Shown here in pieces: positions 396-64,000 of a DNA stretch of 64,000 nt; the first letter of the stretch is position 1; the number at the start of each line of letters is the position of its first letter. The stretch is from an uncultured Planctomycetia bacterium. Lineage in GTDB: Bacteria; Omnitrophota; Gorgyraeia; 1-14-0-20-64-10. The position numbers and the translations under genes are program-made. A model generated the notes under the pieces. The model made no database searches. It was not told where the DNA came from and worked only from the letters and a program-made list of their open reading frames with translations. The stretch covers positions 1,891-65,890 of the forward strand of contig CAYJWF010000004.1 of NCBI GenBank assembly GCA_964373805.1, written 5' to 3'.

Positions 396-999
396 TTTGG
401 ATCACCTTCCGGATCTTCTGCTGGACTTCTTCCATCGGCCGATCGGCCCGGATCACTCGGAATCGCCGAGGTTCCCGTCGAGCGAGAACCCGATACCCCT
501 GACGGACCTTCCGATGAAAGGAAATGGGCTTTCTCTCCATCCGGTTGGGACGCTGAACCCGACTCAAACCTTGGGCAGCCGGCAGATCCAATAGGATCGT
601 TAGCTGCGGCTTCAATCCACCCGTCGCTAGCCGGCCCATGGTTTCCACCAACCCGAGATCGACTTTCCCGGCGAAGCCTTGATAGACCCAGGTCGAATCC
701 TGGAATCGATCGACGATCACCACCTTCCCGGCCGCCAAGGCCGGATGGATCACTTGGGAAACCAAGACGGCCCGGCTCGCCTCGTATAGACAGAGCTCCA
801 CGATCGGCTCGATCGGCCCGGAACGACATTCCAAAAGGATTCGCCTCAATCTCACACCGAAAGCGGTCCCACCCGGTTCCCGGGTCAAAAGCACCCGAAA
901 ACCCCGCCGCTTAAGCCAGTCCGCGAGCCTCCGACTCTGGGTCGATTTCCCTGCCCCCTCTGGTCCCTCGAAGGTGATGAGGAACCCCCGTCTAAACAC
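382..999 (-). CDS. tmk: thymidylate kinase
   Basis: FEGPEGAGKSTQ P-loop, DRF/LID motifs; 205 aa; GTG start. Confidence 0.9.
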   Translation of the reverse strand: MFRRGFLITFEGPEGAGKSTQSRRLADWLKRRGFRVLLTREPGGTAFGVRLRRILLECRSGPIEPIVELCLYEASRAVLVSQVIHPALAAGKVVIVDRFQDSTWVYQGFAGKVDLGLVETMGRLATGGLKPQLTILLDLPAAQGLSRVQRPNRMERKPISFHRKVRQGYRVLARREPRRFRVIRADRPMEEVQQKIRKVIQSVLD

Positions 1000-2431
1000 G
1001 TTTGCGCACCACGGTTCCGCCGGCGGTATCTTCGAGGAGATAGCCGGACTCTTTCAATTGCATTCGAATTTGATCGGCCTTCTTAAAATCGCCGCGCCGA
1101 CGGGCCTCATCCCGTTCCCGGATGAGTTCTCGAATGGCAACAGGAACTTCCTGTCCGAAGGAAAGGCCCAATACACCGGCCAACTCCTGAAGAACCGTTC
1201 GGACGGCTCGGAGCTTTTTCATCGCCTGAGAACCCCGCTCCTCCAGCCAAGGAAGCGCCTGCGCCACCAAGCCGTACAGGGCCGACAACGCCTCAGGGGT
1301 GTTCAAATCGTCGTCCATCGCCTGAACGAATTTTTCCCGCGCCGCGCGAGCGGCGGGAGGTTCCTCCTCTTCCCCCGGCCCGATCCGCTGATCCACCTGC
1401 GTCAAAAATCCGAAGAGTCGTTCATAGGCGTGGGCCGTCTCTTTAAGTCGCTCCCAGGTAAAATCGATCGGGGATCGGTAGTGGGCGGTCAAGAAGAAGA
1501 GCCTTAACACCTCGGCCGGGTGCCGCTTCAAGGTTTCCTCTATCGTAACAATGTTCCCCACCGATTTCGACATCTTCTGACCGTTCACCGTGAGCAGGCC
1601 GTTGTGCAACCAGACCCTCGCAAACGGTTTGCCGGCGCCTTGCGCTTGGGCGATTTCGTTCTCGTGGTGGGGAAAGATAAGGTCCCCTCCTCCACCGTGG
1701 ATATCGAAGGAGTCCCCGAGAAGAGCGGTCGACATGGTGGAACACTCGATGTGCCAGCCGGGACGCCCCGGCCCCCAAGGACTCGCCCAACTGGGCTCCT
1801 CCGGCTTGGCCCTTTTCCAAAGGGCGAAATCGAGCAGATCTTTTTTCGCTTCCACCGCCTCACTCCGAGCTCCGGCCAACATCTGGTCGGGATTCTGATG
1901 GGACAACTTTCCATACGAAGGGAATTTTCGAACCGAAAAGTAAACGCCGTCGCTCCCCACGTACGCCATCCCTCGGCGAAGAAGCTCCTCCATGAAGGCA
2001 ATCATCTTCGGGAGGTACTCGGTCGCCTTCGGCTCGTGGGTGGGGGATAAAAGGCCCAAGCGAGAGAAGTCGGCCTGGAACCGCTCGGTGAAATGCTCCG
2101 CGACCAGTTGAACCTTCATTTTCAAATCTAAAGGGGTCAGACCCCTTTTGCCCACCTCTTGAAGCTCGCGCAGGTCAGGGGCCTGACCCCAGTGGCGGGC
2201 CCGATCGATGATCTTGTCGTCCAGATCGGTGATGTTGCGCGCGTAGGTGACCTGGTAGCCTTTGAAGATCAGGTACCGCAAAAGAACGTCAAAGACTACC
2301 GCTCCCCGCGCGTGGCCGATGTGGCAGTCATCGTAGACGGTGACCCCACAGACGTAGAGGGTCACTTGAGGTGGATGTAACGGGAGGAATTCCTCTTTGC
2401 GACCAGTCAGCGTATTCACGAGTCGCATCAT
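992..2431 (-). CDS. cysS: cysteinyl-tRNA synthetase
   Basis: HIGH and KMSKS motifs (CHIGHARG, KMSKSVGN); 479 aa. Confidence 0.95.
   Translation of the reverse strand: MMRLVNTLTGRKEEFLPLHPPQVTLYVCGVTVYDDCHIGHARGAVVFDVLLRYLIFKGYQVTYARNITDLDDKIIDRARHWGQAPDLRELQEVGKRGLTPLDLKMKVQLVAEHFTERFQADFSRLGLLSPTHEPKATEYLPKMIAFMEELLRRGMAYVGSDGVYFSVRKFPSYGKLSHQNPDQMLAGARSEAVEAKKDLLDFALWKRAKPEEPSWASPWGPGRPGWHIECSTMSTALLGDSFDIHGGGGDLIFPHHENEIAQAQGAGKPFARVWLHNGLLTVNGQKMSKSVGNIVTIEETLKRHPAEVLRLFFLTAHYRSPIDFTWERLKETAHAYERLFGFLTQVDQRIGPGEEEEPPAARAAREKFVQAMDDDLNTPEALSALYGLVAQALPWLEERGSQAMKKLRAVRTVLQELAGVLGLSFGQEVPVAIRELIRERDEARRRGDFKKADQIRMQLKESGYLLEDTAGGTVVRKRV
2130..2152. repeat. P1 palindrome GGGGTCAGACCCC (A/T-flanked) inside cysS
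   Basis: AAAGGGGTCAGACCCCTTTTGCC; in frame; encodes GKRGLTPL. Confidence 0.85.
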
Positions 2432-2461: not shown

Positions 2462-3157
2462 TCACTGTTTCTGGCGGTGCTCTTTGAGCTGCCCCTCGAT
2501 GGCGTCGATCTCGTGCTGGAGTTTCTCTAAGGCCTGGGCTAAGGGATCGGGGAGACTGGTGTGATCCAAGTTGATCCCTGGAAAACGCCGCCCCTCCTGT
2601 CGGACGATGCGGCCCGGGACCCCCACCACCACCGCGTTGGCCGGAACGTCCCGGATCACCACGGCGTTGGCCCCAATCTGGACATCATCAGAAATGGTGA
2701 TGTTGCCAAGCACCTTGGCCCCGGTTCCGATCACCACGTTGTTGCCGATGGTGGGGTGCCGCTTCCCCCGCTCTTTGCCGGTCCCACCGAGGGTTACCCC
2801 CTGGTAGATCGTGACGTTGTCCCTCAAGACCGCGGTCTCACCGACGACCACCCCCATGCCGTGGTCGATGAACAGGCCCTGGCCGATCTGGGCCCCCGGA
2901 TGAATCTCGATTCCGGTCAACCCGCGGCTGGTCTGGGAGATGAGCCGCGCCAAGAACTTTAAGCCCAACCGATGCAAGGCATGAGCGACCCGATGGGAAC
3001 CGATCGCCAACACACTGGGATAAAGGAAAAGGACCTCCCACTCCGATCGGGCCGCCGGGTCTCGCTCCAGGGCGGCTCGAATCTCCCTTTTTAACGAGAC
3101 TCGCATGAAAAGCAACCACCCGACCGCAAAAAATAAAATAACCGCTAGGATCGGCAT
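2462..3157 (-). CDS. cysE: serine O-acetyltransferase
   Basis: Left-handed beta-helix hexapeptide repeats, IHPGAQIG...; 231 aa. Confidence 0.85.
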   Translation of the reverse strand: MPILAVILFFAVGWLLFMRVSLKREIRAALERDPAARSEWEVLFLYPSVLAIGSHRVAHALHRLGLKFLARLISQTSRGLTGIEIHPGAQIGQGLFIDHGMGVVVGETAVLRDNVTIYQGVTLGGTGKERGKRHPTIGNNVVIGTGAKVLGNITISDDVQIGANAVVIRDVPANAVVVGVPGRIVRQEGRRFPGINLDHTSLPDPLAQALEKLQHEIDAIEGQLKEHRQKQ

Positions 3158-4329
3158 CCTTGAAGCAGGACGACCGCGTAGGCGGCCATCGCCTCTTTCG
3201 CACCAATGGGACCTAAACCTTCCATCGTCCGGACCTTCACGTTCACTTGGGATTCCTTAACCTTAAGAAGCCTCGCCACGGAGCTGCGAATCGCCTCTCG
3301 ATGGGGACCTAACCGTGGCTCCTCGGTGATGACCATGAGATCGGCGTTGGAAATTTCAAGTTTCCTGGCTCGAATCAGCCGAAGCGCCTTGGCGATGAAT
3401 CGCTGGCTCGGGGCCCCTTTCCATTTGGAATCGGTATCGGGAAAGTGGCTCCCTAAGTCCCCGGCCCCTGCCGCCCCCAGCATCGCGTCGCAGAGGGCGT
3501 GGAGGAGCACGTCCGCATCGGAGTGACCCAGGAGTCCCTTCTTCGCTGGAATCTTCCTTCCCCCTAAGACGAGCGGCCGGCCCGCGATCAACCGATGAAT
3601 ATCAAACCCAATGCCTACTCGCATATCAAAAGGGGTCTGACCCCTTTTGCCTTTCATCAAGGTTTCCGCCATCAAGAGATCATCCTGAGTGGTCACCTTC
3701 AAATTCCGGGGAGAACCTTCCACGATCCGTACCTTGACCCCCATCGCCTCCACCAAGGCTGCGTCATCCGTTGCGGTAACCCGCCTGATTCTTGCCCGAT
3801 GGTGAGCCGATTCCAACAGATCCCGACGAAACACTTGAGGGGTCTGGATCGCCCAGAGGTGGTTTCGATCCAAGGTTTTGGCCACCCATCCGGCCCTGAC
3901 CTGCTTGATCGTCGGAACCACTGGGATAGCCGCCACGGCCGCTTGCGTCCGTTGGGCGGTCCGGATCGTCTCCATAAGGAGCTCCGATGGGACGAGGGGA
4001 CGAGCCCCATCGTGAACCACCACCCACTCTGCCGATGGAGGAAGCGCCTGCAATCCTCGGAAGACTGAGGCGGTCCGAGAAGCGCCTCCCGGGATGATCT
4101 GAATCACCTTCCGATAGCGGTACTTCTGGACCATCCGTTGGACCGCCGCGACATCGTCCCGATGACTGACCACAACCATCCCATCGATCGGACGAGCCTG
4201 CTCCAAGGCGCTTAAGGTCCAAGACAGCATCGGCCGTCCAGCCAACCGGACGAACGGCTTTCGGACCTTCTTCTTAAAACGTCTGCCCTCTCCAGCAGCT
4301 GGGACAATAGCGACAACCCTAGGTGCCAG
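3145..4329 (-). CDS. ispDF: bifunctional 2-C-methyl-D-erythritol 4-phosphate cytidylyltransferase / 2-C-methyl-D-erythritol 2,4-cyclodiphosphate synthase (IspDF)
   Basis: Tracked ORF starts at a TTG (4245). The same frame upstream encodes the conserved IspD N-terminus VVAIVPAAGEGRRF, right up to an in-frame TAG at 4351-4353. The C-terminal half is IspF (GHSDADVLLHAL...). No ATG/GTG/TTG lies between the TAG and the motif; the start is placed at CTG 4327-4329 by inference. Confidence 0.8.
   Translation of the reverse strand: MAPRVVAIVPAAGEGRRFKKKVRKPFVRLAGRPMLSWTLSALEQARPIDGMVVVSHRDDVAAVQRMVQKYRYRKVIQIIPGGASRTASVFRGLQALPPSAEWVVVHDGARPLVPSELLMETIRTAQRTQAAVAAIPVVPTIKQVRAGWVAKTLDRNHLWAIQTPQVFRRDLLESAHHRARIRRVTATDDAALVEAMGVKVRIVEGSPRNLKVTTQDDLLMAETLMKGKRGQTPFDMRVGIGFDIHRLIAGRPLVLGGRKIPAKKGLLGHSDADVLLHALCDAMLGAAGAGDLGSHFPDTDSKWKGAPSQRFIAKALRLIRARKLEISNADLMVITEEPRLGPHREAIRSSVARLLKVKESQVNVKVRTMEGLGPIGAKEAMAAYAVVLLQGCRS
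3628..3650. repeat. P1 palindrome inside ispDF (IspD-IspF linker)
   Basis: AAAAGGGGTCTGACCCCTTTTGCC; encodes GKRGQTPF. Confidence 0.85.
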
Positions 4330-4350
4330 GTCGACTTTAGACCCCTTTTG

Positions 4351-5379
4351 CTATCTCGCCGCCTTCCAGGCCGCTCGAGAGTTCTCCACCTCCGGCTTGG
4401 CAAAGATCATCCGCCCCGCAGCGGTCTGAAGGACGCTCGTCACCAACACCCGAACCGTCTGCCCGATCAAGGAACGACCCTGTTCGACCACCACCATGGT
4501 CCCGTCATCGAGGTAGGCCACCCCCTGATTGTACTCCTTGCCCTCTTTGATCACCCGGGCCTCCAACAGCTCCCCGGGCAACACCACCGGCTTTAAGGCG
4601 TTGGACAACTCGTTGATGTTAAGCACCGGGACCCCTTGCAGCTCGGACACCTTGTTCAAATTAAAATCGTTGGTCAAGATCTTGGCCCCCATCAGCTTCG
4701 CCAATCGGACGAGCTTCGCGTCCACCTCTTTGGTGTCCGGGAATTCCTCCTCGTGGATCTTCACCTCCACGGAAGGAATCTTCTGCATCCGGGCCAAGAC
4801 GTCCAACCCCCGACGACCTCGGTTGCGCTTGATGGGGTCTTGGCTGTCGGCGATCTGCTGGAGCTCCTTCAAGACAAAACGGGGGATCACCAACCGGCCC
4901 TCGATGAACTGGGTATCACAGATGTCCGCGATCCGCCCATCGATGATGACGCTCGTGTCAAGGATGACGACCTCTTCCCGTTGATCCTGGCGGGTAAACT
5001 TCACATAGGGGATGATGACGTTGAACTCATCCCGACCCCGAACGGCGATGGCCATCCCAAAGTAACAGAAGATCACGACGATCGCCGCCCGAACGGGATT
5101 GCCCAACTCCGGCCCGGTGGGAACCATATCCAAGGTCGTGATGATGAGCCTCGCCATCAACAGCCCAAAGGCCAGCCCAAAGGCGGCGGCCGAGAGGCCG
5201 CGGCTCGAAACCTTCTTCAAGGCCAATTCCAAACCGATCAAGATCAAAGCCACACCGGCTCCCCCCAGGGCTCCGGTCAAGCCCGCCTCGGATCCCCCCA
5301 AGCCCATCAAGGGTCCGATCTGATAACCGACCATGGCCCCTAGGGCCACAAAGAAGAATCGAATGAACCACAGCGTCAT
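4351..5379 (-). CDS. PIN/TRAM domain membrane protein (YacL-like)
   Basis: N-terminal TM helices, PIN domain ([12 protein letters not shown]), C-terminal TRAM-like domain; yacL is the usual neighbour of ispDF. Confidence 0.75.
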
Positions 5380-7812: not shown

Positions 7813-9295
7813 ACTCCTCGTCCCGATCCAACCGAACCTGGACCCTTTGCCCGGAAGAAGACAACGGATACGTCAGCTCCAGCTCCTCGCGCGTCACCGA
7901 TTCCGGTTGAACTTCACGATCCACCTCATAAGCGAGGCCCACCGCCATTCGGTCTTCCGCCGTGGAACGGCGCACGCTCAGGCCCGAAACCGAAGGTCTC
8001 TCGCCCGGCACCTCTACAGGCCGCGCGGGAGACTCCACCCCCAGGGGTCCCACGCGCCAGCCTCCCCCAACCCCTAAACTTCTTTCGGTCGAGGAAAGCC
8101 GCACGTTGGAAAGGAAGTCGCTGCGGCCCAACCGTCGAAGATCGACGGTCCCCTCGATGAGCAGCACGCCGCTTGGCTTGGTGATTTGAGAGTTCTGGAT
8201 CTTTAAGATCGGCCCTTCGCCTCTAAAACGCAGCGTCGCCAGGCGGAATCTCTCCCATCCCAAGGACCCTCCTTCGCTGGAAATCTGGCCTTGGCTTTCC
8301 AGTTGACTTAAGGGGCCGGTCAAGGTGACTCGACCATGAATCGGACCGGAAAGGGTCCATCGCTGAGGTCCAGCAAACCAACGGATCCATCTGTCTAAAT
8401 CGGCCCTTTTAAGCTCCAAGTTCAAGTCCACCGGATAGGGTGGCTTTAAACGAATCCGACCATTCAAAGAGGCCTCTTGCCCCAAAAGCTCCGCCTGCAG
8501 GTGAAGATCGGAACGCTCCACCACCCACCGGACCGTCAGCTGTTCAGGAATTTCTTCCTCCTGGCGCGCCCAGATGGTGATCCTTCCCCCGACCCCATGA
8601 GAAGAAACCTCTTTCTTAAGAACCCCTTCTACCCGCCAGGCTCCTTGGAGTTCGGCCTGTTTCAAGCGGATCGCCTCCCGCGAAAGGGACCATTGGCTGA
8701 CGAAATGACTCCTGGGAAAGTGAGCTCCTTCTTCTACGTTTCTGGCTGCGCCAGCGGCCAGTCTAGGAAAGTCCCGCGCCTCAGCGAGGGGCTCCATCCA
8801 TCCTAAAAGGATCGGCTCCTTAACCGTGCCGCTCAACTCCACCATTCCTTTAAAGAACGGATGCTCCAGGGTGAGCCAACCGTCCCACCCGAGCTGCGAT
8901 GAGTTTTCCTTGGCGTCCTGAGCGGTAAGATGCAAGCGGCCCTGCGCTTCAAGAGGGAGGCCGCCCACCGACAGGGATACCCGAGTCACCGTGATAGAGG
9001 TCACGATACCGTCGCGAAAGAACATCTGTGGATTCTCGAAAGCGCTTCGACTGAAGAGTCGCCAAAGCGATCCTTCCATCTGAAGACGTTCAATCGCCAA
9101 AAAGGAGGGTTTTACGGAAACTCCATAAAGGATCAGTTTCTTGGGAGAAAAGGCCAATCGCTGAATGGATACCGGCGCCTTGAAAAGTTGACTTAAACCT
9201 TGGCTCAACCGAACGCGCCCAACCTGAAGGGCCCAGAAGAATCCTCCAGCGCTCACAAGACTCACGCAGAGAAACGCCCCAAAAAACCGTCTCAA
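7781..9295 (-). CDS. membrane-anchored periplasmic protein, possibly AsmA-like; carries an in-frame repeat element
   Basis: N-terminal TM helix then a 480-aa soluble region; no firm family match; contains repeat R1 encoding [12 protein letters not shown]. Confidence 0.4.
   Translation of the reverse strand: MRRFFGAFLCVSLVSAGGFFWALQVGRVRLSQGLSQLFKAPVSIQRLAFSPKKLILYGVSVKPSFLAIERLQMEGSLWRLFSRSAFENPQMFFRDGIVTSITVTRVSLSVGGLPLEAQGRLHLTAQDAKENSSQLGWDGWLTLEHPFFKGMVELSGTVKEPILLGWMEPLAEARDFPRLAAGAARNVEEGAHFPRSHFVSQWSLSREAIRLKQAELQGAWRVEGVLKKEVSSHGVGGRITIWARQEEEIPEQLTVRWVVERSDLHLQAELLGQEASLNGRIRLKPPYPVDLNLELKRADLDRWIRWFAGPQRWTLSGPIHGRVTLTGPLSQLESQGQISSEGGSLGWERFRLATLRFRGEGPILKIQNSQITKPSGVLLIEGTVDLRRLGRSDFLSNVRLSSTERSLGVGGGWRVGPLGVESPARPVEVPGERPSVSGLSVRRSTAEDRMAVGLAYEVDREVQPESVTREELELTYPLSSSGQRVQVRLDRDEEFVGVEHRKKF
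8733..8800. repeat. R1 repeat element, copy in AsmA-like gene
   Basis: TCTACGTTTCTGGCTGCGCCAGCGGCCAGTCTAGGAAAGTCCCGCGCCTCAGCGAGGGG. Confidence 0.8.
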
Positions 9296-13165: not shown

Positions 13166-13216
13166 CGACCCCCCCCCTGATTCGTTTTGCTTCGCAAACC
13201 GAATCAAAACGGTGGG
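13166..13216. repeat. R2 hairpin repeat copy A (C-run / G-run clamped)
   Basis: CCCCCCCCCTGATTCGTTTTGCTTCGCAAACCGAATCAAAACGGTGGGGG; 41-nt core identical to copy B. Confidence 0.8.
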
Positions 13217-13271
13217 GGTGTGCCTTTTCGGGAAGGGTTACAGTCTTAAGTTTACCTGAGGGGCATGCGAG

Positions 13272-14137: not shown

Positions 14138-14188
14138 CCCCACTGATTCGTTTTGCTTCGCAAACCGAATCAAAACGGTGGGGACTCC
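14138..14188. repeat. R2 hairpin repeat copy B (direct repeat of A)
   Basis: CCCCACTGATTCGTTTTGCTTCGCAAACCGAATCAAAACGGTGGGGAC. Confidence 0.8.
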
Positions 14189-14264: not shown

Positions 14265-15257
14265 TTACGCCTGGGACCCTATGCCGAGGGACTGCTCCAA
14301 GCCTGCCGCAAGGATCGAGACCAAGTCCGGCGAAACTCCGAAACCCTTCAAGATCGCATCCATCGAGAACAGCTCCTGCGCGAAGTAAAGACGTAGAACA
14401 TCCGCCGCGACCCGAACCGGATAAACATGTTCCAGCGGACCCAAATAAGTAACTCGGGAAAGACCATGGATTTTCTGGAAGGCGGTTGTTACCGCATCCG
14501 GGGATCGCTCCGGAACGTAATGAATCCGCCGATTCTCACCGACAAGTCCTTCGGCCAACTCCGATTCCCCCAGCAGAACCAGCCGCCCGGCAAACCGATC
14601 CAGCCTCCGGAGAACCTGGACCAAATCAGCATCTAACGTAGCGGCATCCAGAACAACCGCCTGAATCCCCTCGACGCTTGCCTCCGCCATCGCAACCGCC
14701 ATCGCAATCCCCCGATCCCCTTCCTCTACGTTTCTGGCTGCGTTAGCGGCCAGTCCAGGAAAGTGCCGCGCATCAGCGCGGCCTTCCTCCAGCCCAGAGG
14801 GATTACTTTCTCCCGTGGTACCTGGTTTCGCCTCCCGCTCTGACCCTGAGAAATTTCTTAACAATCGAGGAAGGAATCCCATCACCTTACCAGGAATAGC
14901 CCCCTCCCCACCCCGCCAGCGGGAGATCGTCTCCCGACTCACCGGCTTCCCGCCGTTGTACCCTGCACCTGCCAGCGCCTGAGCCATCCCTTCCTGCGTC
15001 AACCCCAGCCAATCCATCACCTGGCCAAACTCTGTATCACCAGCGACTTCCGAATCCGCTGCATCCTCCTCCAGCCCGGCGAAGGCAGCGGAGGAGCCTC
15101 TGGACCCCCCTGGAAAAGCCGCCTCCAGCTCAGAGCTGGCGGCACTTTCCAGGCCAGCCTGGGCACGCAGCGCAAGGGCAACGGAAGGCCGAACAAGCGT
15201 TAGAGCCAAGAAAAGCCCCAACGAGCTTCGCCAACGGTCCATTCGTTCTCTTCTCAT
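14265..15257 (-). CDS. secreted hypothetical protein of the GLEE-motif family, with embedded repeat and an HTH-like segment
   Basis: Signal-peptide-like N-terminus; several (A/S)GLE(E/Q) motifs; C-terminal ...ILAAGLEQSLGIGSQA; segment GLTQEGMAQALAGAGYNGGKPVSRETISRW resembles an HTH; carries repeat R1. Confidence 0.45.
   Translation of the reverse strand: MRRERMDRWRSSLGLFLALTLVRPSVALALRAQAGLESAASSELEAAFPGGSRGSSAAFAGLEEDAADSEVAGDTEFGQVMDWLGLTQEGMAQALAGAGYNGGKPVSRETISRWRGGEGAIPGKVMGFLPRLLRNFSGSEREAKPGTTGESNPSGLEEGRADARHFPGLAANAARNVEEGDRGIAMAVAMAEASVEGIQAVVLDAATLDADLVQVLRRLDRFAGRLVLLGESELAEGLVGENRRIHYVPERSPDAVTTAFQKIHGLSRVTYLGPLEHVYPVRVAADVLRLYFAQELFSMDAILKGFGVSPDLVSILAAGLEQSLGIGSQA
14712..14800. 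repeat. R1 repeat element, longest copy, in GLEE-family gene
   Basis: CTCTACGTTTCTGGCTGCGTTAGCGGCCAGTCCAGGAAAGTGCCGCGCATCAGCGCGGCCTTCCTCCAG; includes hairpin CCGCGC-ATCA-GCGCGG. Confidence 0.8.
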
Positions 15258-16132: not shown

Positions 16133-16185
16133 AGCCCCCCCCCCCCAAGCTTCGCTTTGCGAAGCAAAACGCGGGGGGCCAGCCG
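16133..16185. repeat. R2 hairpin repeat copy C, between convergent genes (possible bidirectional terminator)
   Basis: CCCCCCCCCCCCCAAGCTTCGCTTTGCGAAGCAAAACGCGGGGGG between the lipoprotein gene (+) and mcsB (-). Confidence 0.6.
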
Positions 16186-16186
16186 A

Positions 16187-17359: not shown

Positions 17360-17974
17360 TCATCTTTTAGGTCCCTTGCCTTTCACCCTAGATTCTTCAC
17401 CCTTCACTGCCTTTGCCTTTTCCTCCACGGCTCGAACCCGATCCCGAAGACGGGCCGCCTCCTCAAAGGCCTCCGCGGCGACCGCCTTCTTGAGGTTCTC
17501 CTTAAGCCGCGCCAGATCTGTCTCTTCCCCTATGCTTTTAGCGGCATCAGCAGCCCGTCCAGAAAAGTGCCGCGCATCAGCGCGGCCTTCACTTTTCTTG
17601 GCCGCCTTCGGCTGCGAAACGGAAGGACCCTTTCCCACATGTTGGGTGGAACCGTGGATCCGCTTTAACAGGGGAACCAGGTACGGCTCAAACGTCTCGT
17701 AACAGTTCCCGCAGCCAAGCCGACCAACCTTGCGAAACCCTTCGTAAGTCATTCCACACCTGGGGCAGGAAAGCTTGGTTCGCTCGGTCGACTCTCCTTT
17801 AAGCCCGAAGTCGGCGAGGCCGGCCAAAAGGCCTGCTAACCCGAACTCCTGCCCTGCCGCAGTTCCTTTCTCGTGCGCGCAGCTCTCGCAGAGATGGAGC
17901 TCGCGGGTCTGGTCGTCAATGATCTCGGTCAGATGAACCGTCGCCTCGTTTTGTCCACACAGGTCACAGGTCAC
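17360..17974 (-). CDS. mcsA: McsA, activator of protein arginine kinase (zinc-finger / UVR domain)
   Basis: CxxC pairs (CDLCG...CESC; CPRCG...CGNC) and a C-terminal UVR motif (AVAAEAFEEAARLRDRV); carries a partial R1 repeat. Confidence 0.75.
   Translation of the reverse strand: MTCDLCGQNEATVHLTEIIDDQTRELHLCESCAHEKGTAAGQEFGLAGLLAGLADFGLKGESTERTKLSCPRCGMTYEGFRKVGRLGCGNCYETFEPYLVPLLKRIHGSTQHVGKGPSVSQPKAAKKSEGRADARHFSGRAADAAKSIGEETDLARLKENLKKAVAAEAFEEAARLRDRVRAVEEKAKAVKGEESRVKGKGPKR
17533..17600. repeat. R1 repeat element, partial copy (3' half), in mcsA
   Basis: ...CCAGAAAAGTGCCGCGCATCAGCGCGGCCTTCAC; the 33-nt core is identical to the 14712 copy. Confidence 0.75.
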
Positions 17975-17984
17975 AAGCTTTCCT

Positions 17985-18012
17985 CAAAAAGGTACCAGGT
18001 ACCATTTTAAAA
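17985..18012 (-). terminator. putative rho-independent terminator of ilvE (GGTAC-CTG-GTACC hairpin plus U-run)
   Basis: Minus-strand RNA reads ...AAAAUGGUACCUGGUACCUUUUUGAG directly after the ilvE stop. Confidence 0.5.
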
Positions 18013-18017
18013 CCCCA

Positions 18018-18036
18018 ACGGGGTCAGACCCCATCA
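18018..18036. repeat. P1 palindrome, intergenic (ilvE-mcsA)
   Basis: CAACGGGGTCAGACCCCATC. Confidence 0.8.
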
Positions 18037-18906
18037 ATACCGCACCCCGGCGGTTCTGGTGAGCTTCCGGAAATCCCGCATGAACCTCAAGGTCAACCTC
18101 CCCGGCTTTCCGGTGCCAATCGAACGCCCATCGATCTTGACCACCGGGGCAATCTCCGCGGCGGTGCCGGTTAAAAAACATTCCTCGGCGTTGTACAGAT
18201 CGTGTCGGGTCAGCATCTCCTCGCGGACCTTCCGGCGAACCTCAGTTGCCAACCCGATGACGCAGTCGCGGGTGATCCCCCTTAAGATGCCGGCGTAGGC
18301 CGGGGGGGTCATCAGGATTCCCCGACGGACAATGAAGATATTCTCCCCTGTGCATTCCGAGACGTAGCCCTGGGCAGACAGCATCAGGGCCTCTTCGACC
18401 CCCGCGTTGATCGCCTCGATCTTAGCCAAGATGTTGTTCAGGTAGTTCAGCGACTTGATCTGGGGGTTCAGCGCCTCCGGCAGATTCCGGGGGGTGGGAA
18501 CTGTGACGATCTCCATTCCCTCCTGGTAGATCCGCTTCGGGTACAGCACGATTTTGTCCGCGATGATAAAGACCGTCGGCTTCTCGCACTTGCGCGGGTC
18601 CAATCCCAGGTCACCCACCCCGCGGGTGACGACCAGCCGAATGTAGGCGTTGGTCAACCGGTTGGCCCGCAGGGTCCCCACCACCGCCTGGATCATCTCC
18701 TCCTTGTTTAACGGGATCTTGAGCAGGATCGTGTGGGACGACTCGTAAAGGCGATCCACATGTTCCTTCAGTTTAAAGACGAGGCCATCGTAAGAACGGA
18801 TCCCCTCGAAGACCCCGTCGCCGTAGAGAAGGCCGTGATCGTAGAGGGAGATCTGTGCCTTAGAGGAATCCACCAGTTTCCCATTCAGATAGACCTTTAG
18901 TCCCAT
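18034..18906 (-). CDS. ilvE: branched-chain amino acid aminotransferase (class IV PLP enzyme)
   Basis: Fold-type IV aminotransferase motifs, 290 aa. Confidence 0.8.
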   Translation of the reverse strand: MGLKVYLNGKLVDSSKAQISLYDHGLLYGDGVFEGIRSYDGLVFKLKEHVDRLYESSHTILLKIPLNKEEMIQAVVGTLRANRLTNAYIRLVVTRGVGDLGLDPRKCEKPTVFIIADKIVLYPKRIYQEGMEIVTVPTPRNLPEALNPQIKSLNYLNNILAKIEAINAGVEEALMLSAQGYVSECTGENIFIVRRGILMTPPAYAGILRGITRDCVIGLATEVRRKVREEMLTRHDLYNAEECFLTGTAAEIAPVVKIDGRSIGTGKPGRLTLRFMRDFRKLTRTAGVRY

Positions 18907-23687: not shown

Positions 23688-23730
23688 GATGGTACCAGGT
23701 ACCTTTCTAAAATGGTACCTGATACCATTT
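23688..23730. repeat. P2 twin hairpins GGTACCAGGTACC + GGTACCTGATACC (lnt 3' end / lysS upstream)
   Basis: GATGGTACCAGGTACCTTTCTAAAATGGTACCTGATACCATTTTA. Confidence 0.8.
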
Positions 23731-25618: not shown

Positions 25619-28606
25619 TCATGCACCATGACATCGTTTGTATTTCCTGCCACTGCCGCAGTAACAGGGATCGTTCCTTCCCACCTTGGGATGTTCCCGT
25701 CGAAATGGGTGGGAGCTCTCCCGCGCTTCGGCCATCGGACCGGCTCCCACTCCCGGAACAAACGGTTCGTCGGTCCCTTCACGAAACGATTCGGGGTTTA
25801 TCAACGAAGGCGTCGGAGTCGCCGCCTTCGGGGCTTCTGGATGAAGGAACTGTGTCGGCTCCAAAACCCGAGGCCTCGTCTCGGTCCGAACCGCTTGGAT
25901 CTTGAAGATAAGCTCCACGATCTCTTGTCGGACCGATTCCACCATCCGGGTGAACATCTGGTACGCCTCGTGCTGATACTCGACCAACGGATCCTGCTGG
26001 CCGTAGACCCGATAGCCGATCCCTTCCCGCAGGTGGTCCATGGCGTAGAGATGATCCTTCCACTTGGTGTCGATGACCTGAAGCATTACCCACTGCTCCA
26101 GCCGCCGCATCGACCCTTCCCCCAATACCGATTCTCGGGCCTCGTAGGCCTGATGGGCGGCGGTGAGGAGGCTCTGCGCCAGATCTTCTCTTCCTATACG
26201 TTTCTGGCTGCGCCAGCGGCCAGTCGAGGAAAGTCCCGCATCAGCGGGGCTCCCCAACTTCGCGAAGTCGGGGATCGCCACCGAAAACCGGCCTTGGATC
26301 GCCTCGGACAATCCGGAGAGATTCCACTCCTCCGGATCTTGATGAGACAGCGCATAAAGATCCAACAATCCCTGGATCGATTCCTCCACCATCTCGAGGA
26401 TCTTAGGCTTCAACTCTTTACCCTCCAAGACCGCCCGTCGCTCCCGGTAGATCACCTCCCGCTGGCGGTTCATCACGTTGTCGTACTCCAAGAGACGTTT
26501 CCGAATCTCGAAGTTGTGCGTCTCCACCCTCTTCTGGGCCGTCTCGATCGCCCTGGAGAGCCACGGGTGTTCGATCGCCTCCCCTTCGGGGATGGCCGCC
26601 TTGGTCCACTCGAGAAGTCGGTTCTCTCCGAAGATGCGGATCAAGTCGTCGTCCAGGGAAAGGTAGAATCGGCTAGAGCCAGGATCCCCTTGTCGGCCGG
26701 AGCGCCCGCGAAGCTGGTTATCGATCCGGCGGGACTCGTGCCGCTCGGTGCCGAGGACGTGCAGACCCTTCAAGCCTACCACCTGGGCATGTTCCGCCTC
26801 CACTTGGGTCTGCACCTTCGGTTCGATCTCCTTCAAAAGCTCGGCCTCGACTTCCTGTGAAAATTCAGGGACCATCTCCGCCGGAGGCGGGCCCTGCGCT
26901 TGCCCGCCCTCATTTTGGCGGGGGGACCCTCCCTGAGCGAGCTGGTCCTTTCGGCGTTTCAGCTCCGCGGCGATGAGGAATTGGGGATTCCCTCCCAAAA
27001 GGATATCGGTCCCCCGCCCCGCCATGTTGGTGGCGATGGTCACCGCCTTGAATCGCCCGGCCTGAGCGACGATCTGGGCCTCCTGCTCGTGGTATCGGGC
27101 GTTGAGGACGTGGTGCGGGATCTGGCGGCGTTTCAGAAGCTCGCTTAACCGTTCCGACTTCTCAATGGAAACGGTGCCCACCAGGACCGGCCGGCCTTCC
27201 CCGTGCAGCTGGGTGATCTCCTCTTCGATGGCTTGGAACTTTTCCCGTTCGGTCTTGTAGACCACATCCGCGTAGTTGGTTCGAATCAAAGTCCGGTTGG
27301 GGGGGACGGTGACCACCTCCAGACGATAGATCTGGTGGAACTCGGCCGCTTCGGTGGAGGCGGTGCCGGTCATCCCTGCCAGCTTATCGTACATGCGAAA
27401 GTAATTCTGGAAGGTGACCGTGGCCAAGGTCTGGTTTTCCCGTTCGATCCGAACCCCCTCCTTGGCCTCGATCGCCTGATGGAGCCCGTCCGACCAGCGA
27501 CGACCCGGCATGAGCCGGCCGGTAAATTCGTCGACGATCACCACCTGGCCGTCCTTGACCATGTAGTCGACGTCCCGCCGGTATAAGGTGTGGGCCCGGA
27601 GGGCCTGGTTGATGTGATGAACGAGGGTGATGTTGGTGTCCTCGTAGAGGTTGCCCACCTGGAGAAGCCCCTCGGCCTTCTTGACACCCTCCTCGGTTAA
27701 GATCGCCGAGTGGGCCTTCTCATCCACGGAGTAGTCCGCGCCCTTCGCCAGTTTCGGAACGATCCGATCGATCTTGAAATAAAGCTCGGTCGACTCCTCA
27801 GCCGGCCCGGAGATGATGAGGGGCGTTCTCGCCTCATCGATCAAGATCGAGTCGACCTCATCCACGATGGAATACGACAATCCCCTCTGGACGCATTCCT
27901 CCACGGAAACCACCATGTTGTCCCGAAGATAATCAAAGCCGAACTCGTTGTTCGTCCCGTAGGTGACGTCGCATGCGTAAGCGGCCTTACGATCCGAGGC
28001 ACCCATCTCGTGTTGAATCGCCCCGACGGTTAACCCTAAGCTTTCGTAGATCGGTCCCATCCAGTTCCGATCCCGTTTGGCGAGGTAGTCGTTCACCGTC
28101 ACCAGATGGACTCCGCGCCCCAAGAGGCCGTTTAAAAAGACGGCCAGGGTGGCCACCAGGGTCTTGCCCTCACCGGTAGCCATCTCGGCAATCTTTCCCT
28201 GATGGAGAACCATTCCTCCGATCAGCTGCACGTCGAAATGGCGCATGTTCACCGTCCGACGGGCCGCCTCGCGAACCAAGGCGAAGGCCTCTGGGAGAAT
28301 CTCCTCCATCGCCCGATTCTCGATCTTTAAGCGACGCTTCCGTTCCCCCTTCAGTGCGTCTTCGTCGTTGGGATCGATGGAATCGCCCAGTGGGACGGTG
28401 CCATCGGAATCGATTCCGCCTCCGAGTTGTGCGATCCGGGCCTTCAGACGTTGACGCAACGCCTCGGCCTTTTCCTTTAATTGGGAATCGCTTACATCCT
28501 TCACCGTCGGCTCCAGGGCGCTGATCCTTGCCACAACAGGCATCAGCCGCTTCAAGAACCGCTCGTTCTGCGAGCCGACCAGTTTATTGAGGAACCAGTT
28601 CAACAT
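25619..28606 (-). CDS. secA: preprotein translocase ATPase SecA
   Basis: DEAD-like motor motifs and C-terminal zinc-binding [14 protein letters not shown]; 995 aa; carries an in-frame R1 repeat in a variable C-terminal region. Confidence 0.95.
26196..26265. repeat. R1 repeat element (RPE-like), copy in secA
   Basis: CTATACGTTTCTGGCTGCGCCAGCGGCCAGTCGAGGAAAGTCCCGCATCAGCGGGG...; same element at 8733-8800, 14712-14800 and partially at 17533-17600. Confidence 0.8.
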
Positions 28607-32451: not shown

Positions 32452-32955
32452 TTAAATAAAACCTTCTTCTTTGAGGAGGCGGCGCTTGGCGGCGAGGCCC
32501 CCTTTGGCGGAGTACCCCCCTAAGGTCCCATCACTGGCGATCCCGCTTCGCGGGATTCTCCTTAAACGGTGCACCTTTCGGTGCACGAAAAACTTAGAGG
32601 AAACGACCCGGTGGCAGGGGATCTGAGGCGCCCAGCGGTTTCGTTTCAAGGCCTGCCCCACCGCCCGAGCCGCTTTCGGCTGGCCGATCTGTCTGGCCAC
32701 CCAGGCATAAGTTCGCACCTGCCCCTTGGGAATCTTCAGGATCGCCTCGTATACCTTCCGTTGAAACGGGGTACACTTCTTCCACCACTCCTGCCGATCG
32801 ATCCCATCTCGAATGGGGTCGAAGGGTCGAATCACTACAAGGGGCAGATCCCCACGGGTGATCATCATCGGCTGCCTGTGTCTTGCCACTTCATCCATTA
32901 CCCTATCGAAGTTCCTCTCAGTGAACCTTTCTGATATCTTCTTCACTTTTATCAC
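32452..32955 (-). CDS. ogt: methylated-DNA-protein-cysteine methyltransferase (MGMT/Ogt-like), with a 23-aa insertion in the active-site loop
   Basis: Conserved MGMT C-domain (TPFQRKVYEAI...TYAWVA...PCHRVV ... DGTLGGY). PCHRVV and DGTLGGY are separated by 23 extra residues encoded by two GAA(A)-loop hairpins in the DNA. Confidence 0.7.
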   Translation of the reverse strand: MIKVKKISERFTERNFDRVMDEVARHRQPMMITRGDLPLVVIRPFDPIRDGIDRQEWWKKCTPFQRKVYEAILKIPKGQVRTYAWVARQIGQPKAARAVGQALKRNRWAPQIPCHRVVSSKFFVHRKVHRLRRIPRSGIASDGTLGGYSAKGGLAAKRRLLKEEGFI

Positions 32956-34417
32956 CTTCCTGTGTCTTGTCTGTCTTTAGATGAATCAGGATTCGCTGGG
33001 CGAGTACCGCAGAGATTCCTCGCACCTGGGTGAGATCCTCGGCAGTGGCCTTGCGGATCGCTTCCACCGAACCGAAGAGAACCAAGAGGTCCTGCCGCCG
33101 GCGGGGCCCCACCCCGGGAACATCATCGAGGGCTGAGCTCAGCGCGTGCTTGCCTCGGAGAAGCCGGTGATAGCCAATGGCGAACCGATGGGCCTCATCC
33201 CGGAGCCGTTGGATGAGCTGCAGCGCCTTCGACTGCGGCGGCAAAACGATCGGCTCCTCGTGGCCAGGCAGGAACAGCTGTTCGAACTCCTTGGCGATCC
33301 CCACAGCCGGCAGATCCAGTTTAAGCTCCCTGAACACCTCCAGGGCGGCGTTGAGATGCCCCTTGCTTCCGTCGATCACCACCAGGTCCGGCCTTTTTTC
33401 GGTACCAGGTACCTTTTTAAGAACGGTGCCTGGCACCGTGAGGGGTTCGTATCGCCGCCGGACGATCTCTTTCATCATGGCGTAATCGTCAATCCCGTGG
33501 ACGCCCCTGATTTTAAATCGACGGTACCCATCCTTGAAAGGGACTCCGTCGACAAAGGTCACCATCGACCCGACCGCCTGACGGCCGAAGAGGTTGGAGA
33601 CGTCAAACCCCTCGATGCGCTGGGGCAGCCGCGGCAACTTGAAGATCGATCGTAAGTCGTCCAAGGCCTCGGCCGGGATCAGCCGCCGGGGACGGACGGT
33701 CAGTTGAAGTAAGCCGGCCACCTGATCCCTGAACCTCGCCGCCTCCTCGTAGCGACGGGTCTGGGAGGCCTCGTTCATCTTCCCTTTAAGATCTTCGAGC
33801 ACCTCCTCCTTTTTGCCTTCCATCAATCGGAAAACCTGGGAGAGGTTTTCTCGATAAGCCGCTGGAGAGATCTTTCCTTCACAGGGCGCTGGGCAAAGCT
33901 TGAGATGATAATCGAGACAAGCCCGTTTCGGCAACGTCCGACAGGTTCTAAAAGGGATCACCCGTCGAATGGCGCCGACGGCTTGCCTGAGCAGTTTGGC
34001 GTTGGTGAAGGGGCCGATCGCCTTGATCCCAGACTCGTGGGTCCCCCGCCCAATGAAAAGCCGAGGAAACTCCTCCTCCACGGTGATCTTTAAGGAGGGA
34101 TACGACTTGTCGTCTCGAAAGGAAACGTTGTACTTAGGTTGATGCTCCTTGATGAGGCTCGCCTCGTAGAGAAGGGCCTCCGCCTCCGAGCCGGTCAAGA
34201 TCCACTCCAAATCGTTCGTCTGCTGAATCAGTCGGAGCAGCTTATCGGTGAGCGGCCGACTGGGTTGAAAGTAGCTTGAGACCCTCTTGCGCAGGGAAAC
34301 GGCCTTGCCAACGTACAGGATCTGGCCGTCAACGTCCTTGAAGAGATAGACCCCGGGGCGGTCGGGAAGCTCGCTTAACTTTTTCTGAAGCGCTGGGGGC
34401 ACCGCTCGGCCAGCCAT
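32918..34417 (-). CDS. uvrC: excinuclease ABC subunit C
   Basis: N-terminal GIY-YIG (GVYLFKD...YVGKA), UVR domain, RNase-H-like endonuclease domain and C-terminal HhH; carries a twin-hairpin insertion encoding TVPGTVLKKVPGTEKR. Confidence 0.85.
   Translation of the reverse strand: MAGRAVPPALQKKLSELPDRPGVYLFKDVDGQILYVGKAVSLRKRVSSYFQPSRPLTDKLLRLIQQTNDLEWILTGSEAEALLYEASLIKEHQPKYNVSFRDDKSYPSLKITVEEEFPRLFIGRGTHESGIKAIGPFTNAKLLRQAVGAIRRVIPFRTCRTLPKRACLDYHLKLCPAPCEGKISPAAYRENLSQVFRLMEGKKEEVLEDLKGKMNEASQTRRYEEAARFRDQVAGLLQLTVRPRRLIPAEALDDLRSIFKLPRLPQRIEGFDVSNLFGRQAVGSMVTFVDGVPFKDGYRRFKIRGVHGIDDYAMMKEIVRRRYEPLTVPGTVLKKVPGTEKRPDLVVIDGSKGHLNAALEVFRELKLDLPAVGIAKEFEQLFLPGHEEPIVLPPQSKALQLIQRLRDEAHRFAIGYHRLLRGKHALSSALDDVPGVGPRRRQDLLVLFGSVEAIRKATAEDLTQVRGISAVLAQRILIHLKTDKTQEGDKSEEDIRKVH
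33400..33442. repeat. P2 twin hairpins GGTACCAGGTACC + GGTGCCTGGCACC inside uvrC
   Basis: TTTTTTCGGTACCAGGTACCTTTTTAAGAACGGTGCCTGGCACCGTG; each hairpin reads VPGT in the uvrC frame (TVPGTVLKKVPGTEKR). Confidence 0.85.
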
Positions 34418-58674: not shown

Positions 58675-58692
58675 GGGGTCTGACCCCATCAG
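58675..58692. repeat. P1 palindrome, intergenic (after nrdJ)
   Basis: CTCGGGGTCTGACCCCATCAG. Confidence 0.8.
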
Positions 58693-59276
58693 AATTTTTC
58701 GCACCGTTTTAAGATCGCCCGAAAGTTCCTCTTCAAGCTCGAGCGCTCCAGTTCTTGGAAAACCCACTCGGGAATCCAGAAGTTCGGTTCGACGGTCGTT
58801 TCGTACGTGATTCGGGTTTCCCCTTCGACCGATTCCAAATACCAGTAGCCCTGATTCCATACAAAATCCCCCTCGACCGCCTTAAAGAGAAGCTGGGTGT
58901 TGGAAATTTCTTGAACCTGGAAAACCGTTCGGATCACTCTTCGATAAAACGGCAAGCGGACTCTTGCCTCCTGATAGAGCACTAAGCGATCCCCTTTTCG
59001 CTCAAGGACTTTGGAGATCTTAAGATCCGGGATAAATTCGGCTAGGTGGTCGTAATCGGTCAAAACAGCCCAAACCTTTTCCTTTGGGACAGCAACGACC
59101 ACCCGGGCTAAGACGTAGGTTCGACGGGGGGCTAGACGCTCTACGGTAACGGTAAGGGAATAGGGCCCTATTTCGGTAACGCGGGTTTCCTCGGCAAGAA
59201 GGAAAGAGGCGCTCCCCACGAGAGAGCTTAACGCCAGCAGTAAGGTTACACCACCCATGCAAGTTGACCCGTTCAC
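58689..59276 (-). CDS. secreted SRPBCC (START/Bet v1-like) family protein
   Basis: Signal peptide then polyketide-cyclase/dehydrase-like fold pattern (~150 aa). Confidence 0.45.
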   Translation of the reverse strand: MNGSTCMGGVTLLLALSSLVGSASFLLAEETRVTEIGPYSLTVTVERLAPRRTYVLARVVVAVPKEKVWAVLTDYDHLAEFIPDLKISKVLERKGDRLVLYQEARVRLPFYRRVIRTVFQVQEISNTQLLFKAVEGDFVWNQGYWYLESVEGETRITYETTVEPNFWIPEWVFQELERSSLKRNFRAILKRCEKF

Positions 59277-60104: not shown

Positions 60105-60160
60105 CTATCCCCCACGTTTTGTTTCGCTTCGCGAACCAAAACGAAACTTGGGGGACCCTT
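60105..60160. repeat. R2 hairpin repeat copy E
   Basis: CCCCCACGTTTTGTTTCGCTTCGCGAACCAAAACGAAACTTGGGGGACCC. Confidence 0.7.
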
Positions 60161-63587: not shown

Positions 63588-63799
63588 TTTTTCGGTGATG
63601 ACCGGGGCTAGCTGTCTGGATTGTTCATTTCGCCATAGAAATGTCCTGTTAGTAACAGGTTACCTGCTCCCGCAGGAAAATTCAAGGCCCCACAAGCCGC
63701 AAGGAAATTTTCCTCACTTTTACCTCCCCATAGGCCATACTTGATGTGAAGACCTCGAAAAAGGCACGGCCACATTCAAGGCCACGCAAAGCCACGGAT

Positions 63800-63845
63800 C
63801 TTTTGGTGCCAGGCACCTTTTAAAGATGGGTGCCTGGCACCAAAA
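63800..63845. repeat. P2 twin hairpins GGTGCCAGGCACC + GGTGCCTGGCACC upstream of tpsA
   Basis: TTTTGGTGCCAGGCACCTTTTAAAGATGGGTGCCTGGCACCAAAAAAG. Confidence 0.8.
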
Positions 63846-64000
63846 AAGAGAGCCGGGCTGCCGAGGTGCAGAAGATTTTGCGTCACGGCAACCCGGCGTT
63901 TTTATTTTCCTGGTTTCCTTCGGCCTTTCGTAAAAGGTGAGAACGGATTAGGATGGAAGGGATAACCTTAAGATGACGATGCAGCGAGTTAATCCTTTGC

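Follow-up and report, generated by a model that had tools for sequence, protein, structure and literature searches.

A 13-nucleotide (nt) palindrome, GGGGTCWGACCCC, is dispersed through the stretch of contig CAYJWF010000004.1 analysed here (64 kb in all, hereafter the window), which comes from an uncultured, probable Omnitrophota genome. We consider it probable that this 13-mer is the self-complementary end-repeat, similar to repetitive extragenic palindromic (REP) sequences and terminal inverted repeats (TIRs), of a Y1 HUH transposase of the TIRYT class, and that its gene-less copies are dispersed in the manner of REP or REPIN elements. Six exact copies were found in the window against 0.01 expected, and none of 100 dinucleotide-preserving shuffles reached six; composition does not account for this frequency. 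All six contain the head GGGGTCAG on one or the other strand, and with one degenerate copy and one half-copy of the 13-mer they make up the total in the window, two pairs being among them. A preliminary description of this DNA had proposed a mobile hairpin element, and a dispersed, hairpin-forming repeat of mobile-element type, in frame in cysS, ispDF and leuS, is indeed what was found; that description did not include the degenerate seventh copy at 2178, the organisation in pairs or the connection with a transposase family. The exact 13-mers start at 2133, 3632, 18020, 47800, 47815 and 58675 (exact-match count), and the copies and their host genes are as follows.

992-2431, minus strand: cysS (cysteinyl-tRNA synthetase), host gene
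2129-2194, minus strand: insertion of about 22 codons in cysS, HWGQAPDLRELQEVGKRGLTPL, residues 80-101 (copy, 32-nt spacer, copy)
2130-2148: 19-nt perfect palindrome AAAGGGGTCAGACCCCTTT in cysS, with the 13-mer at 2133-2145; minus-strand reading K-R-G-L-T-P-L
2178-2190: degenerate copy GGGGCCTGACCCC in cysS, one mismatch, 45 nt from the 2133 copy; encodes W-G-Q-A-P
3145-4245, minus strand: ispD-ispF single open reading frame (ORF), with Pfam IspD at residues 2-198 and YgbB at residues 208-361
3627-3649: 23-nt perfect palindrome CAAAAGGGGTCTGACCCCTTTTG in ispDF, with the 13-mer at 3632-3644; encodes K-R-G-Q-T-P-F-D
4339-4351: half-copy AGACCCCTTTTGC, right arm plus flank, identical in 13 of 13 nt to 2139-2151
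18020-18032: intergenic copy, minus-strand reading TGA-T-GGGGTCTGACCCC, abutting the stop codon of a class IV aminotransferase gene (18034-18906)
47304-49868, minus strand: leuS (leucyl-tRNA synthetase), host gene
47800-47827: paired copies GGGGTCAGACCCC-TT-GGGGTCTGACCCC in leuS, A-centre then T-centre, 2-nt spacer, 15-nt period
58675-58687: intergenic copy, minus-strand reading TGA-T-GGGGTCAGACCCC, abutting the stop codon of an SRPBCC-family gene (58689-59276)

The letters at 2130-2152 read AAAGGGGTCAGACCCCTTTTGCC, and the 13-mer lies there in frame and flanked by A/T, as had been described. Exact matches likewise bear out the copies listed earlier for ispDF, for leuS (two) and for two intergenic sites, one of which does start at 18020, while the other starts at 58675 and not at 58677. 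The half-copy reported near the start of ispDF is present too, its precise site being 4339-4351. The copy at 58675 sits between two convergent genes, those of a class II ribonucleotide reductase (55812-58646, plus strand) and of the SRPBCC-family protein (minus strand). No GTAG or CGTC tag was found in or adjoining the 13-mer copies, their head being that given above. As regards the flanks, the stop codons of the genes adjoining 18020-18036 and 58675-58691 fall within the TGAT/ATCA flank of the copies, and the ATCA(GG) flank of these intergenic copies also occurs after the leuS pair and after the cysS pair of a relative (L200).

Folded as single-stranded DNA, the extended palindromes form hairpins of -7.3 kcal/mol (AAAGGGGTCAGACCCCTTT, z -3.0) and -10 kcal/mol (CAAAAGGGGTCTGACCCCTTTTG, z -5.1). 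The leuS pair forms a hairpin with a 12-bp stem (-14.8 kcal/mol, z -5.0) and the cysS pair folds at -18.4 kcal/mol (z -3.2); single copies fold weakly, at -4.4 to -5.5 kcal/mol (z -1.4 to -1.9). A role of the GGGGTC copies as canonical intrinsic terminators was rejected, given their lack of a proper T-tract and their weak single hairpins. The right half-site with its flank is often tandemly duplicated beside full copies, as seen at six other loci (L094, L095, L090, L093, L109 and L110) and at 47822-47836 of the window; examples are GACCCCTTAACT-GACCCCTTAACC, GACCCCTTTAATCT twice, and GACCCCTTTGACCCT in leuS. These duplications could be due to slippage, or could be extra half-sites for a binding protein.

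The connection with a transposase came from a BLAST search of plasmids with the doubled 23-mer, which matched plasmid NC_007641 of Rhodospirillum rubrum ATCC 11170. This plasmid carries five exact 13-mers, all intergenic, and two of them bracket the gene of a 'transposase' of 235 aa, one lying 36 nt upstream and the other 3 nt downstream. Pfam Y1_Tnp (IS200-like) matches this protein with E 1e-11 and 45.4 bits versus a cut-off of 23, and on NCBIfam NF047646, 'REP-associated tyrosine transposase', it obtains 77.4 bits, slightly short of the 80-bit cut-off. Its two closest examined relatives (63-64% identity) also adjoin exact 13-mers: at one locus (L205) these lie at -123, -50, +430 and +494 relative to the gene, at the other (L204) one lies 69 nt downstream and two upstream, and at both loci exact copies thus occur on the two sides of the gene, some of them 430-740 nt off. 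Since the exact 13-mer is found again beside the closest relatives of the R. rubrum protein, the exact sequence tracks a particular clade of the enzyme. The locus L204 (12761-13462, 14328-15059) also has three TIRYT paralogs in a segment of 5 kb, where DUF4160/DUF2442 gene pairs lie between them, and only some of these paralogs are flanked by the 13-mer or by the near variant AGGGGTCAGACCCT.

Beyond this clade, we looked at the best 80 metagenomic TIRYT homologs (44-57% identity), 67 loci of which were evaluable for flanks. GGGTCAG upstream combined with CTGACCC downstream, both within 300 nt, was present at 36 of these 67 loci, the background being 0.096 per 300 nt, and an upstream GGGTCAG was present at 50, usually at -31 to -100. 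Among the hairpins in these flanks are types that differ by one base from GGGGTCWGACCCC, namely AAAAGGGGTCAGAGCCCTTTT, AAAAGGGGTCAGATCCCTTTT and AAAGGGGTCAGTACCCTTT. Inverted flanks with the same head motif were also found at plasmid homologs of Skermanella, Pseudomonas aeruginosa, Pseudoalteromonas and Iodobacter and at a further locus (L195). In viral contigs, a TIRYT search with a single protein as query gave no match, and one with an alignment as query gave one locus, which has GGGGTCAGAG repeats.

The head agrees with what has been described for this class of enzymes. TIRYTs were named by Di Nocera et al. 2013 (PMC3733652) as RAYT-like Y1 transposases flanked by terminal inverted repeats; many of these TIRs share GGGGWSAS, and some of them, which are self-complementary, constitute moderately abundant families made up of singles, dimers and clusters (PMC3733652). 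Most TIRYTs belong to TnpA_REP subclass 2.1, for which the consensus is GGGG[AT][CG]A[CG] (Quentin et al. 2018, PMC6006769). GGGGTCAG fits both GGGGWSAS and this consensus.

Pattern scans detected the same 13-mer in IMG/VR contigs of 38-70% GC, typically as AAAAGGGGTCWGACCCCTTTT and as pairs with spacers of 4-36 nt. Over all sequences examined there were 81 exact copies and 22 pairs, and the pairs were strongly oriented: 16 had the A-centre copy followed by the T-centre copy (A>T), two were T>A, four T>T and none A>A. An A>T pair folds into a 12-13-bp hairpin, and A>T is the orientation of the two ends of a transposase gene, 5'-GGGGTCAG..gene..CTGACCCC-3', so that the pair resembles a gene-less miniature of the transposase unit. 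Inverted pairs were also seen after gene ends in other contigs. One of the IMG/VR contigs (L089; GVMAG-S-404869-41, 1318-2277, GC 55%) contains an RNase R-like ORF in whose Lys-rich C-terminal tail the 13-mer occurs four times in frame, as RGQTP; this contig, pair-rich in its other parts, may be bacterial rather than giant-virus DNA. A BLAST search of a phage collection gave no meaningful match, and no relevant paper was found on the 13-mer or its 11-mer core.

IS200/IS605 TnpA and E. coli TnpA-REP recognise a hairpin on single-stranded DNA, cut it and join it. By analogy, a TIRYT encoded elsewhere in this genome, that is, one of the RAYT relatives of TnpA_REP subclass 2.1 with GGGGWSAS-headed flanking repeats, would recognise, cut and join the hairpin of the 13-mer in the same form. 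Gene-less copies would then exist in two forms, single 13-mers and A-centre-then-T-centre pairs, the latter comparable to a REPIN or a miniature transposon, with each pair representing a copy of the two ends of a transposase unit folded into a 12-13-bp hairpin. Survival would have been possible for copies whose landing or duplication added a multiple of three bases within tolerant loops or inter-domain linkers of essential genes, and these copies would now be translated as (R/W/K)-G-(Q/L)-T-P.

An insertion of this kind is seen in cysS. Alignment with 80 orthologs from diverse genomes places the additional residues HWGQAPDLRELQEVGKRGLTPL directly after the conserved DDKIIxRA, and shows that the insertion, which had been taken to be 8 aa long, is of about 22 aa and consists of two copies and their spacer. 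The alignment to the solved CysRS 3tqo breaks between query residues 84 and 109, the insertion having no counterpart there. In the AlphaFold model of CysS the mean predicted local distance difference test score (pLDDT) is 91 and falls to 62-70 over residues 81-100, and the modelled insertion is a loop, a short helix and a loop, the loops being encoded by the two palindromes. Neither the 13-mer nor the ~22-aa insertion occurs in any of 80 distant CysS loci among the matches listed (identity up to 50%, 1.25 Mb), a set which served as negative control. Close relatives (60-68% identity in CysS) have the following loops.

Short loop, no motif: P0002, P0006, P0009
WGLTPLDFE, one copy: P0013
14-aa peptide, tandem pair: P0015, P0017, P0020
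RGLTPDSGELRDAAQRGQTPLDLK, two copies 45 nt apart: P0003

DNA of relatives shows that the loop peptides are encoded by the palindrome itself, and CysS orthologs without the DNA palindrome are also without the KRGLTP peptide, a point on which the preliminary description had made its proposal depend. In one relative (L081), cysS contains two exact copies with the same 45-nt spacing as in the window, the position of the degenerate copy of the window being exact there; others have a pair (L082), an exact pair (L200) or one exact copy (L202), and two more (L083 and L084) have no copy of the 13-mer in 16-20 kb. The paired unit, with the same ATCAGGTTT flank, is near-identical in leuS of the window and in cysS of L200.

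In leuS the pair encodes a 10-aa segment in the hypervariable linker between the catalytic and anticodon-binding domains. G[QL]TP was found in none of 150 representative LeuS homologs; judged by these, the pair is lineage-specific, and LeuS homologs gave no presence/absence series among close relatives. In the ispD-ispF ORF the repeat occupies the junction (3622-3654), where 24 nt, AAA AGG GGT CAG ACC CCT TTT GAT, lie exactly between the C-terminus of IspD (..AETLMKG) and the native ispF ATG. The two genes are separate in five relatives, overlapping in different frames in L081 and L083 and called as separate in L200, L201 and L203. The single ORF looks like a gene fusion mediated by the repeat, one that arose independently of the IspDF fusions already known. 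The true ispD start is upstream of 4245, before 4316, at about which position the conserved N-terminus of IspD, VVAIVPAAG, begins. No in-frame ATG, GTG or TTG is found between this N-terminus and the TAG stop of the same-frame upstream PIN-domain gene (window 4246-4353), and the half-copy CAAAAGGGGTCTAAAG lies in this gap, just past the PIN-domain gene stop codon and ahead of the IspD N-terminus. This could be explained by initiation at CTG or ATT, by readthrough of the stop codon or by a fault in the assembly.

The three host genes, cysS, ispD-ispF and leuS, are all on the minus strand, and the five intragenic copies all use the frame xGG GGT CWG ACC CCx and encode (R/W)G(Q/L)(T/A)P. With the centre base in codon position 2, this frame gives (R/W)G(Q/L)(T/A)P in either orientation; by symmetry, the earlier statement that coding is independent of orientation holds for G-(Q/L)-T-P. 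It had also been suggested that the element was selected to be translatable, and for this part we found no support beyond ordinary purging. The sister palindromes in uvrC (see below) use a different, non-symmetric frame, and coding copies of the same 13-mer in other genomes apparently use the TCW frame (GSDP), although the ORF calls are tentative there (our greedy ORF caller is unreliable in high-GC loci, and coding calls at 'viral' loci are tentative except for the RNase R-like ORF). The WGA frame is lethal with a T centre (TGA), and the exclusive use of CWG in the window represents about three independent intragenic events. Given the uvrC and TCW cases, the frame pattern is equally explained by the purging of harmful insertions, and the frame bias would be a result of purifying selection.

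Several observations indicate at which level the sequence is held. GGT accounts for 12% of Gly codons in 25 long window genes, and from codon usage 5% of G-Q-T would be expected to read GGT-CAG-ACC and 2% of G-L-T to read GGT-CTG-ACC; nevertheless, every G[QL][TA]P in these 25 genes and ispDF is encoded by the palindrome. The cysS copies are exact across lineages in which CysS is about 65% identical and GC is 58% versus 68%. Their intervening 32-nt spacer has diverged, and the centre base is flipped, giving Q..L in the window and L..Q in L081. The codon bias, the intergenic copies, and the exact cysS copies with a flipped centre beside a diverged spacer point to constraint or homogenisation of the DNA palindrome; the constraint acts at the DNA level and not at the peptide level. 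The alternative that selection acted on a protein motif with a function of its own, for instance as a flexible linker or for proline-directed modification, with the palindrome as a by-product, has in its favour that the same peptide occurs in CysS, LeuS and IspDF as well as in the RNase R-like tail of another organism. Against it, two exact copies are intergenic, the codons are fixed to the palindrome in spite of the low use of GGT (each copy would have its observed codons with an expected probability of 0.02-0.05), Q and L replace each other freely, and the peptide is absent from all 150 LeuS representatives and all 80 distant CysS orthologs. Codon usage and the intergenic copies effectively refute it, and it is the sole rival explanation of which this can be said.

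There are also results that weigh against a TIRYT end-repeat. The exact 13-mer is absent from the best 80 metagenomic TIRYT homologs mentioned above, and its exact-sequence link to a transposase consists of three loci. A tblastn search with the R. rubrum TIRYT over the window and about 100 kb of relatives' contigs gave no TIRYT/RAYT homolog, so that mobilisation in this genome is an inference. No target-site duplication and no clean pair of empty and filled sites was found, the single-copy CysS allele resembles a 5-aa loop replaced by 7 aa and not a clean 15-nt insertion, and in the contigs of four relatives exact copies are confined to cysS. The low density and the cysS-only copies are a better fit to old, vertically inherited, conserved copies than to ongoing transposition, and exact cysS copies across 65% CysS identity hint at a host-level function, which the transposase explanation does not supply.

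Some of these results would be accommodated if the palindrome had spread without a transposase, by hairpin-templated mutation, slippage, fold-back synthesis or gene conversion, as proposed for HIP1, and were kept for some host function, such as that of a hairpin in mRNA or DNA, of a terminator or of a site bound by a protein. The loop-substitution appearance of the single-copy CysS allele, the flipping of the centre base between orthologous copies, the partial 'stutter' duplications such as GACCCCTTAACT-GACCCCTTAACC that adjoin copies, and the retention of cysS copies across 35% protein divergence all agree with such a process, and the sister palindrome GGTACCTGGTACC followed by TTTTT scores terminator-like. 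It would not predict the identity with TIRYT gene ends at three loci or the strong A>T bias of the pairs, and the intergenic GGGGTC copies have no proper T-tract and, as single copies, reach only -4.4 to -5.5 kcal/mol; we regard this explanation as quite improbable.

Exact conservation at orthologous cysS positions would also fit molecular drive, and a ComEC-type competence protein is encoded at 39098-40693, so a DNA uptake signal was considered, that is, a 13-mer recognised by the competence machinery which accumulates by biased uptake and recombination like the DNA uptake sequences and uptake signal sequences (DUS/USS) of Neisseria and Pasteurellaceae. The in-frame copies in poorly conserved loops and the inverted pairs after gene ends in other contigs are compatible with this. 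DUS/USS have a density of about 1 per kb, however, and the 13-mer one of about 1 per 10 kb here. The very same 13-mer is present in contigs of 38-70% GC and on an alphaproteobacterial plasmid, several sister palindromes coexist in the window, and the specific flanking of Y1 transposase genes would remain without explanation; an uptake signal is highly improbable. Hardly credible, in turn, is a binding site for a chromosome-organising or regulatory protein, like matS (a 13-bp palindrome), parS or Noc sites, in spite of the perfect dyad symmetry, the moderate copy number, the intragenic location and the conserved orthologous sites. Copies come with extra codons and tandem duplication and not by point mutation of existing codons, and the association with transposase genes is again left unexplained. 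Moreover, the sister palindromes keep their dyad symmetry through changes in both arms (GGTACC/GGTACC, GGTGCC/GGCACC, GGTGTC/GACACC), which points to a hairpin rather than to one fixed protein site. A Tn3-type inverted repeat, suggested by the likeness of GGGGTCTGAC to the Tn3 end, was rejected as well, as a 13-nt palindrome cannot be a 38-bp Tn3 end.

The TIRYT end-repeat reading finds its closest match in the known TIRYT or 'TIRtron' families, with which the palindrome shares the GGGGWSAS head, the inverted position around a Y1 gene of about 230-245 aa, self-complementary TIRs and the occurrence as singles, dimers and clusters. It differs from them in that the window unit is a mere 13-nt perfect palindrome, in that several window copies lie in essential genes and are translated in frame, which we found reported for GTAG/CGTC REPs and not for TIRYT repeats, and in its host, an uncultured, probable Omnitrophota lineage, with the cognate gene not seen within the window. 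REP/REPIN-RAYT systems, reportedly the subject of work by Nunvar in 2010, Bertels and Rainey in 2011 and Ton-Hoang in 2012, have in common with it the short hairpin repeats, inverted doublets as the apparent replicating unit, the flanking of a usually single-copy Y1 transposase and long-term vertical inheritance. Classical REPs differ by their GTAG (or CGTC) tag, their length of 20-40 nt and their overwhelmingly extragenic location. GTAG/CGTC REPs nonetheless occur inside ORFs, among them repair genes and tRNA synthetases, and often donate stop codons (PMC3733652).

The palindrome shares with Rickettsia palindromic elements (RPEs) that palindromic repeats lie in frame in coding genes, including housekeeping genes, at residue-tolerant sites. 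RPEs, said to go back to Ogata and colleagues in 2000, belong to an unrelated sequence family, and the window units are of 13 nt (15 nt per in-frame unit) and at most 66 nt in cysS. RPEs are of about 100-150 bp, restricted to Rickettsia, CGTC-tagged and without an associated transposase (PMC3733652). HIP1 (GCGATCGC) of cyanobacteria is likewise a very short, strongly over-represented palindrome, common in coding sequence and conserved at the DNA level, but it is of 8 nt, hundreds of times denser, thought to spread by substitution and linked to methyltransferases, with neither a transposase link nor added codons. DUS/USS share preferred reading frames, variable protein segments and inverted pairs after genes, and differ in being asymmetric, about 10 times denser, clade-specific and without transposase association. 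We found no description of in-frame translation of the GGGGWSAS class within essential genes, of a unit reduced to a 13-nt perfect palindrome, or of one sequence shared by an alphaproteobacterium and a probable Omnitrophota lineage. The assignment to Omnitrophota is based on the names that CysS homologs of about 50-60% identity carry.

With a TIRYT end-repeat, an otherwise unexplained short palindrome of an uncultured, probable Omnitrophota genome would be linked to the TIRYT/RAYT Y1 transposases as a defined family of enzymes. A simple test system would also be at hand, with a 13-nt unit and, as candidate cognate enzyme, the protein WP_011387744.1 of the cultured R. rubrum. In-frame palindromes in housekeeping genes, known from Rickettsia RPEs and GTAG/CGTC REPs, would be extended to the GGGGWSAS class, with consequences for proteins such as a 22-aa CysS loop, a LeuS linker and an apparent ispD-ispF fusion. 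For annotation, such repeats would account for insertions that conserved proteins show in particular lineages, for unusual gene fusions and for stop codons directly next to a repeat. We think it unlikely, but worth stating, that the host has co-opted the 13-mer as a minimal hairpin module, which provides in-frame linkers (ispD-ispF) and stop codons (TGAT flank) and is under DNA-level purifying selection at the cysS loop. If this were true, the hairpin itself would be functional, for instance as a landmark for a domesticated TIRYT or as an mRNA or replication signal, the copy in the cysS loop would have been kept across genus- or family-level divergence, and the identical 13-mer in Alphaproteobacteria and probable Omnitrophota would mark a cross-phylum, horizontally spreading TIRYT-repeat partnership.

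Other palindromes of similar build occur in the window. In uvrC (32918-34417, minus strand) the sister 13-nt palindromes GGTACCAGGTACC and GGTGCCTGGCACC lie in frame at 33401-33413 and 33425-33437, 24 nt apart, and the TVPGT..KVPGT that they encode belongs to the linker preceding the RNase H-like endonuclease domain; the centre base of these palindromes is at codon position 3, and their frame class (VPGT, non-symmetric) differs from that of the GGGGTC family. More 13-nt palindromes on the plan GGNNYC-W-GRNNCC (GGTACCAGGTACC, GGTGTCAGACACC and GGTGCCWGGCACC), mostly A>T pairs with A/T flanks, are located at 17991-18003, 23691-23727, 39413-39464 and 63805-63841, one sister pair being inside the ComEC-like gene (39098-40693). 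In total, the window has 33 odd palindromes with arms of at least 6 nt, where mononucleotide shuffles give about 18. The heads GGTGTCAG and GGGGCCAG also adjoin TIRYT homologs (L139, L159 and L115). At 63753-63865 (plus strand) there is a match to the c-di-GMP-I riboswitch (36.6 bits versus a gathering score of 35); a 39-nt insertion, which is precisely the GGTGCCAGGCACC...GGTGCCTGGCACC pair and folds at -21.4 kcal/mol (z -8.0), takes the place of its distal second hairpin.

Two further repeat families were noticed. Separate hairpin repeats of about 46 nt (CCCC..CGTTTTG..CAAAACG..GGGG) are present at 13172-13217, 14138-14183, 40623-40668 and 60109-60154, and also at 16136-16186; the copies differ in sequence and all fold to long hairpins of -15 to -21 kcal/mol (z -3.7 to -6.2). 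Direct repeats of 68 nt (69-87% identity) at 8722-8789, 14714-14781, 17518-17585 and 26184-26251 lie in four long minus-strand ORFs and may represent a shared protein segment.

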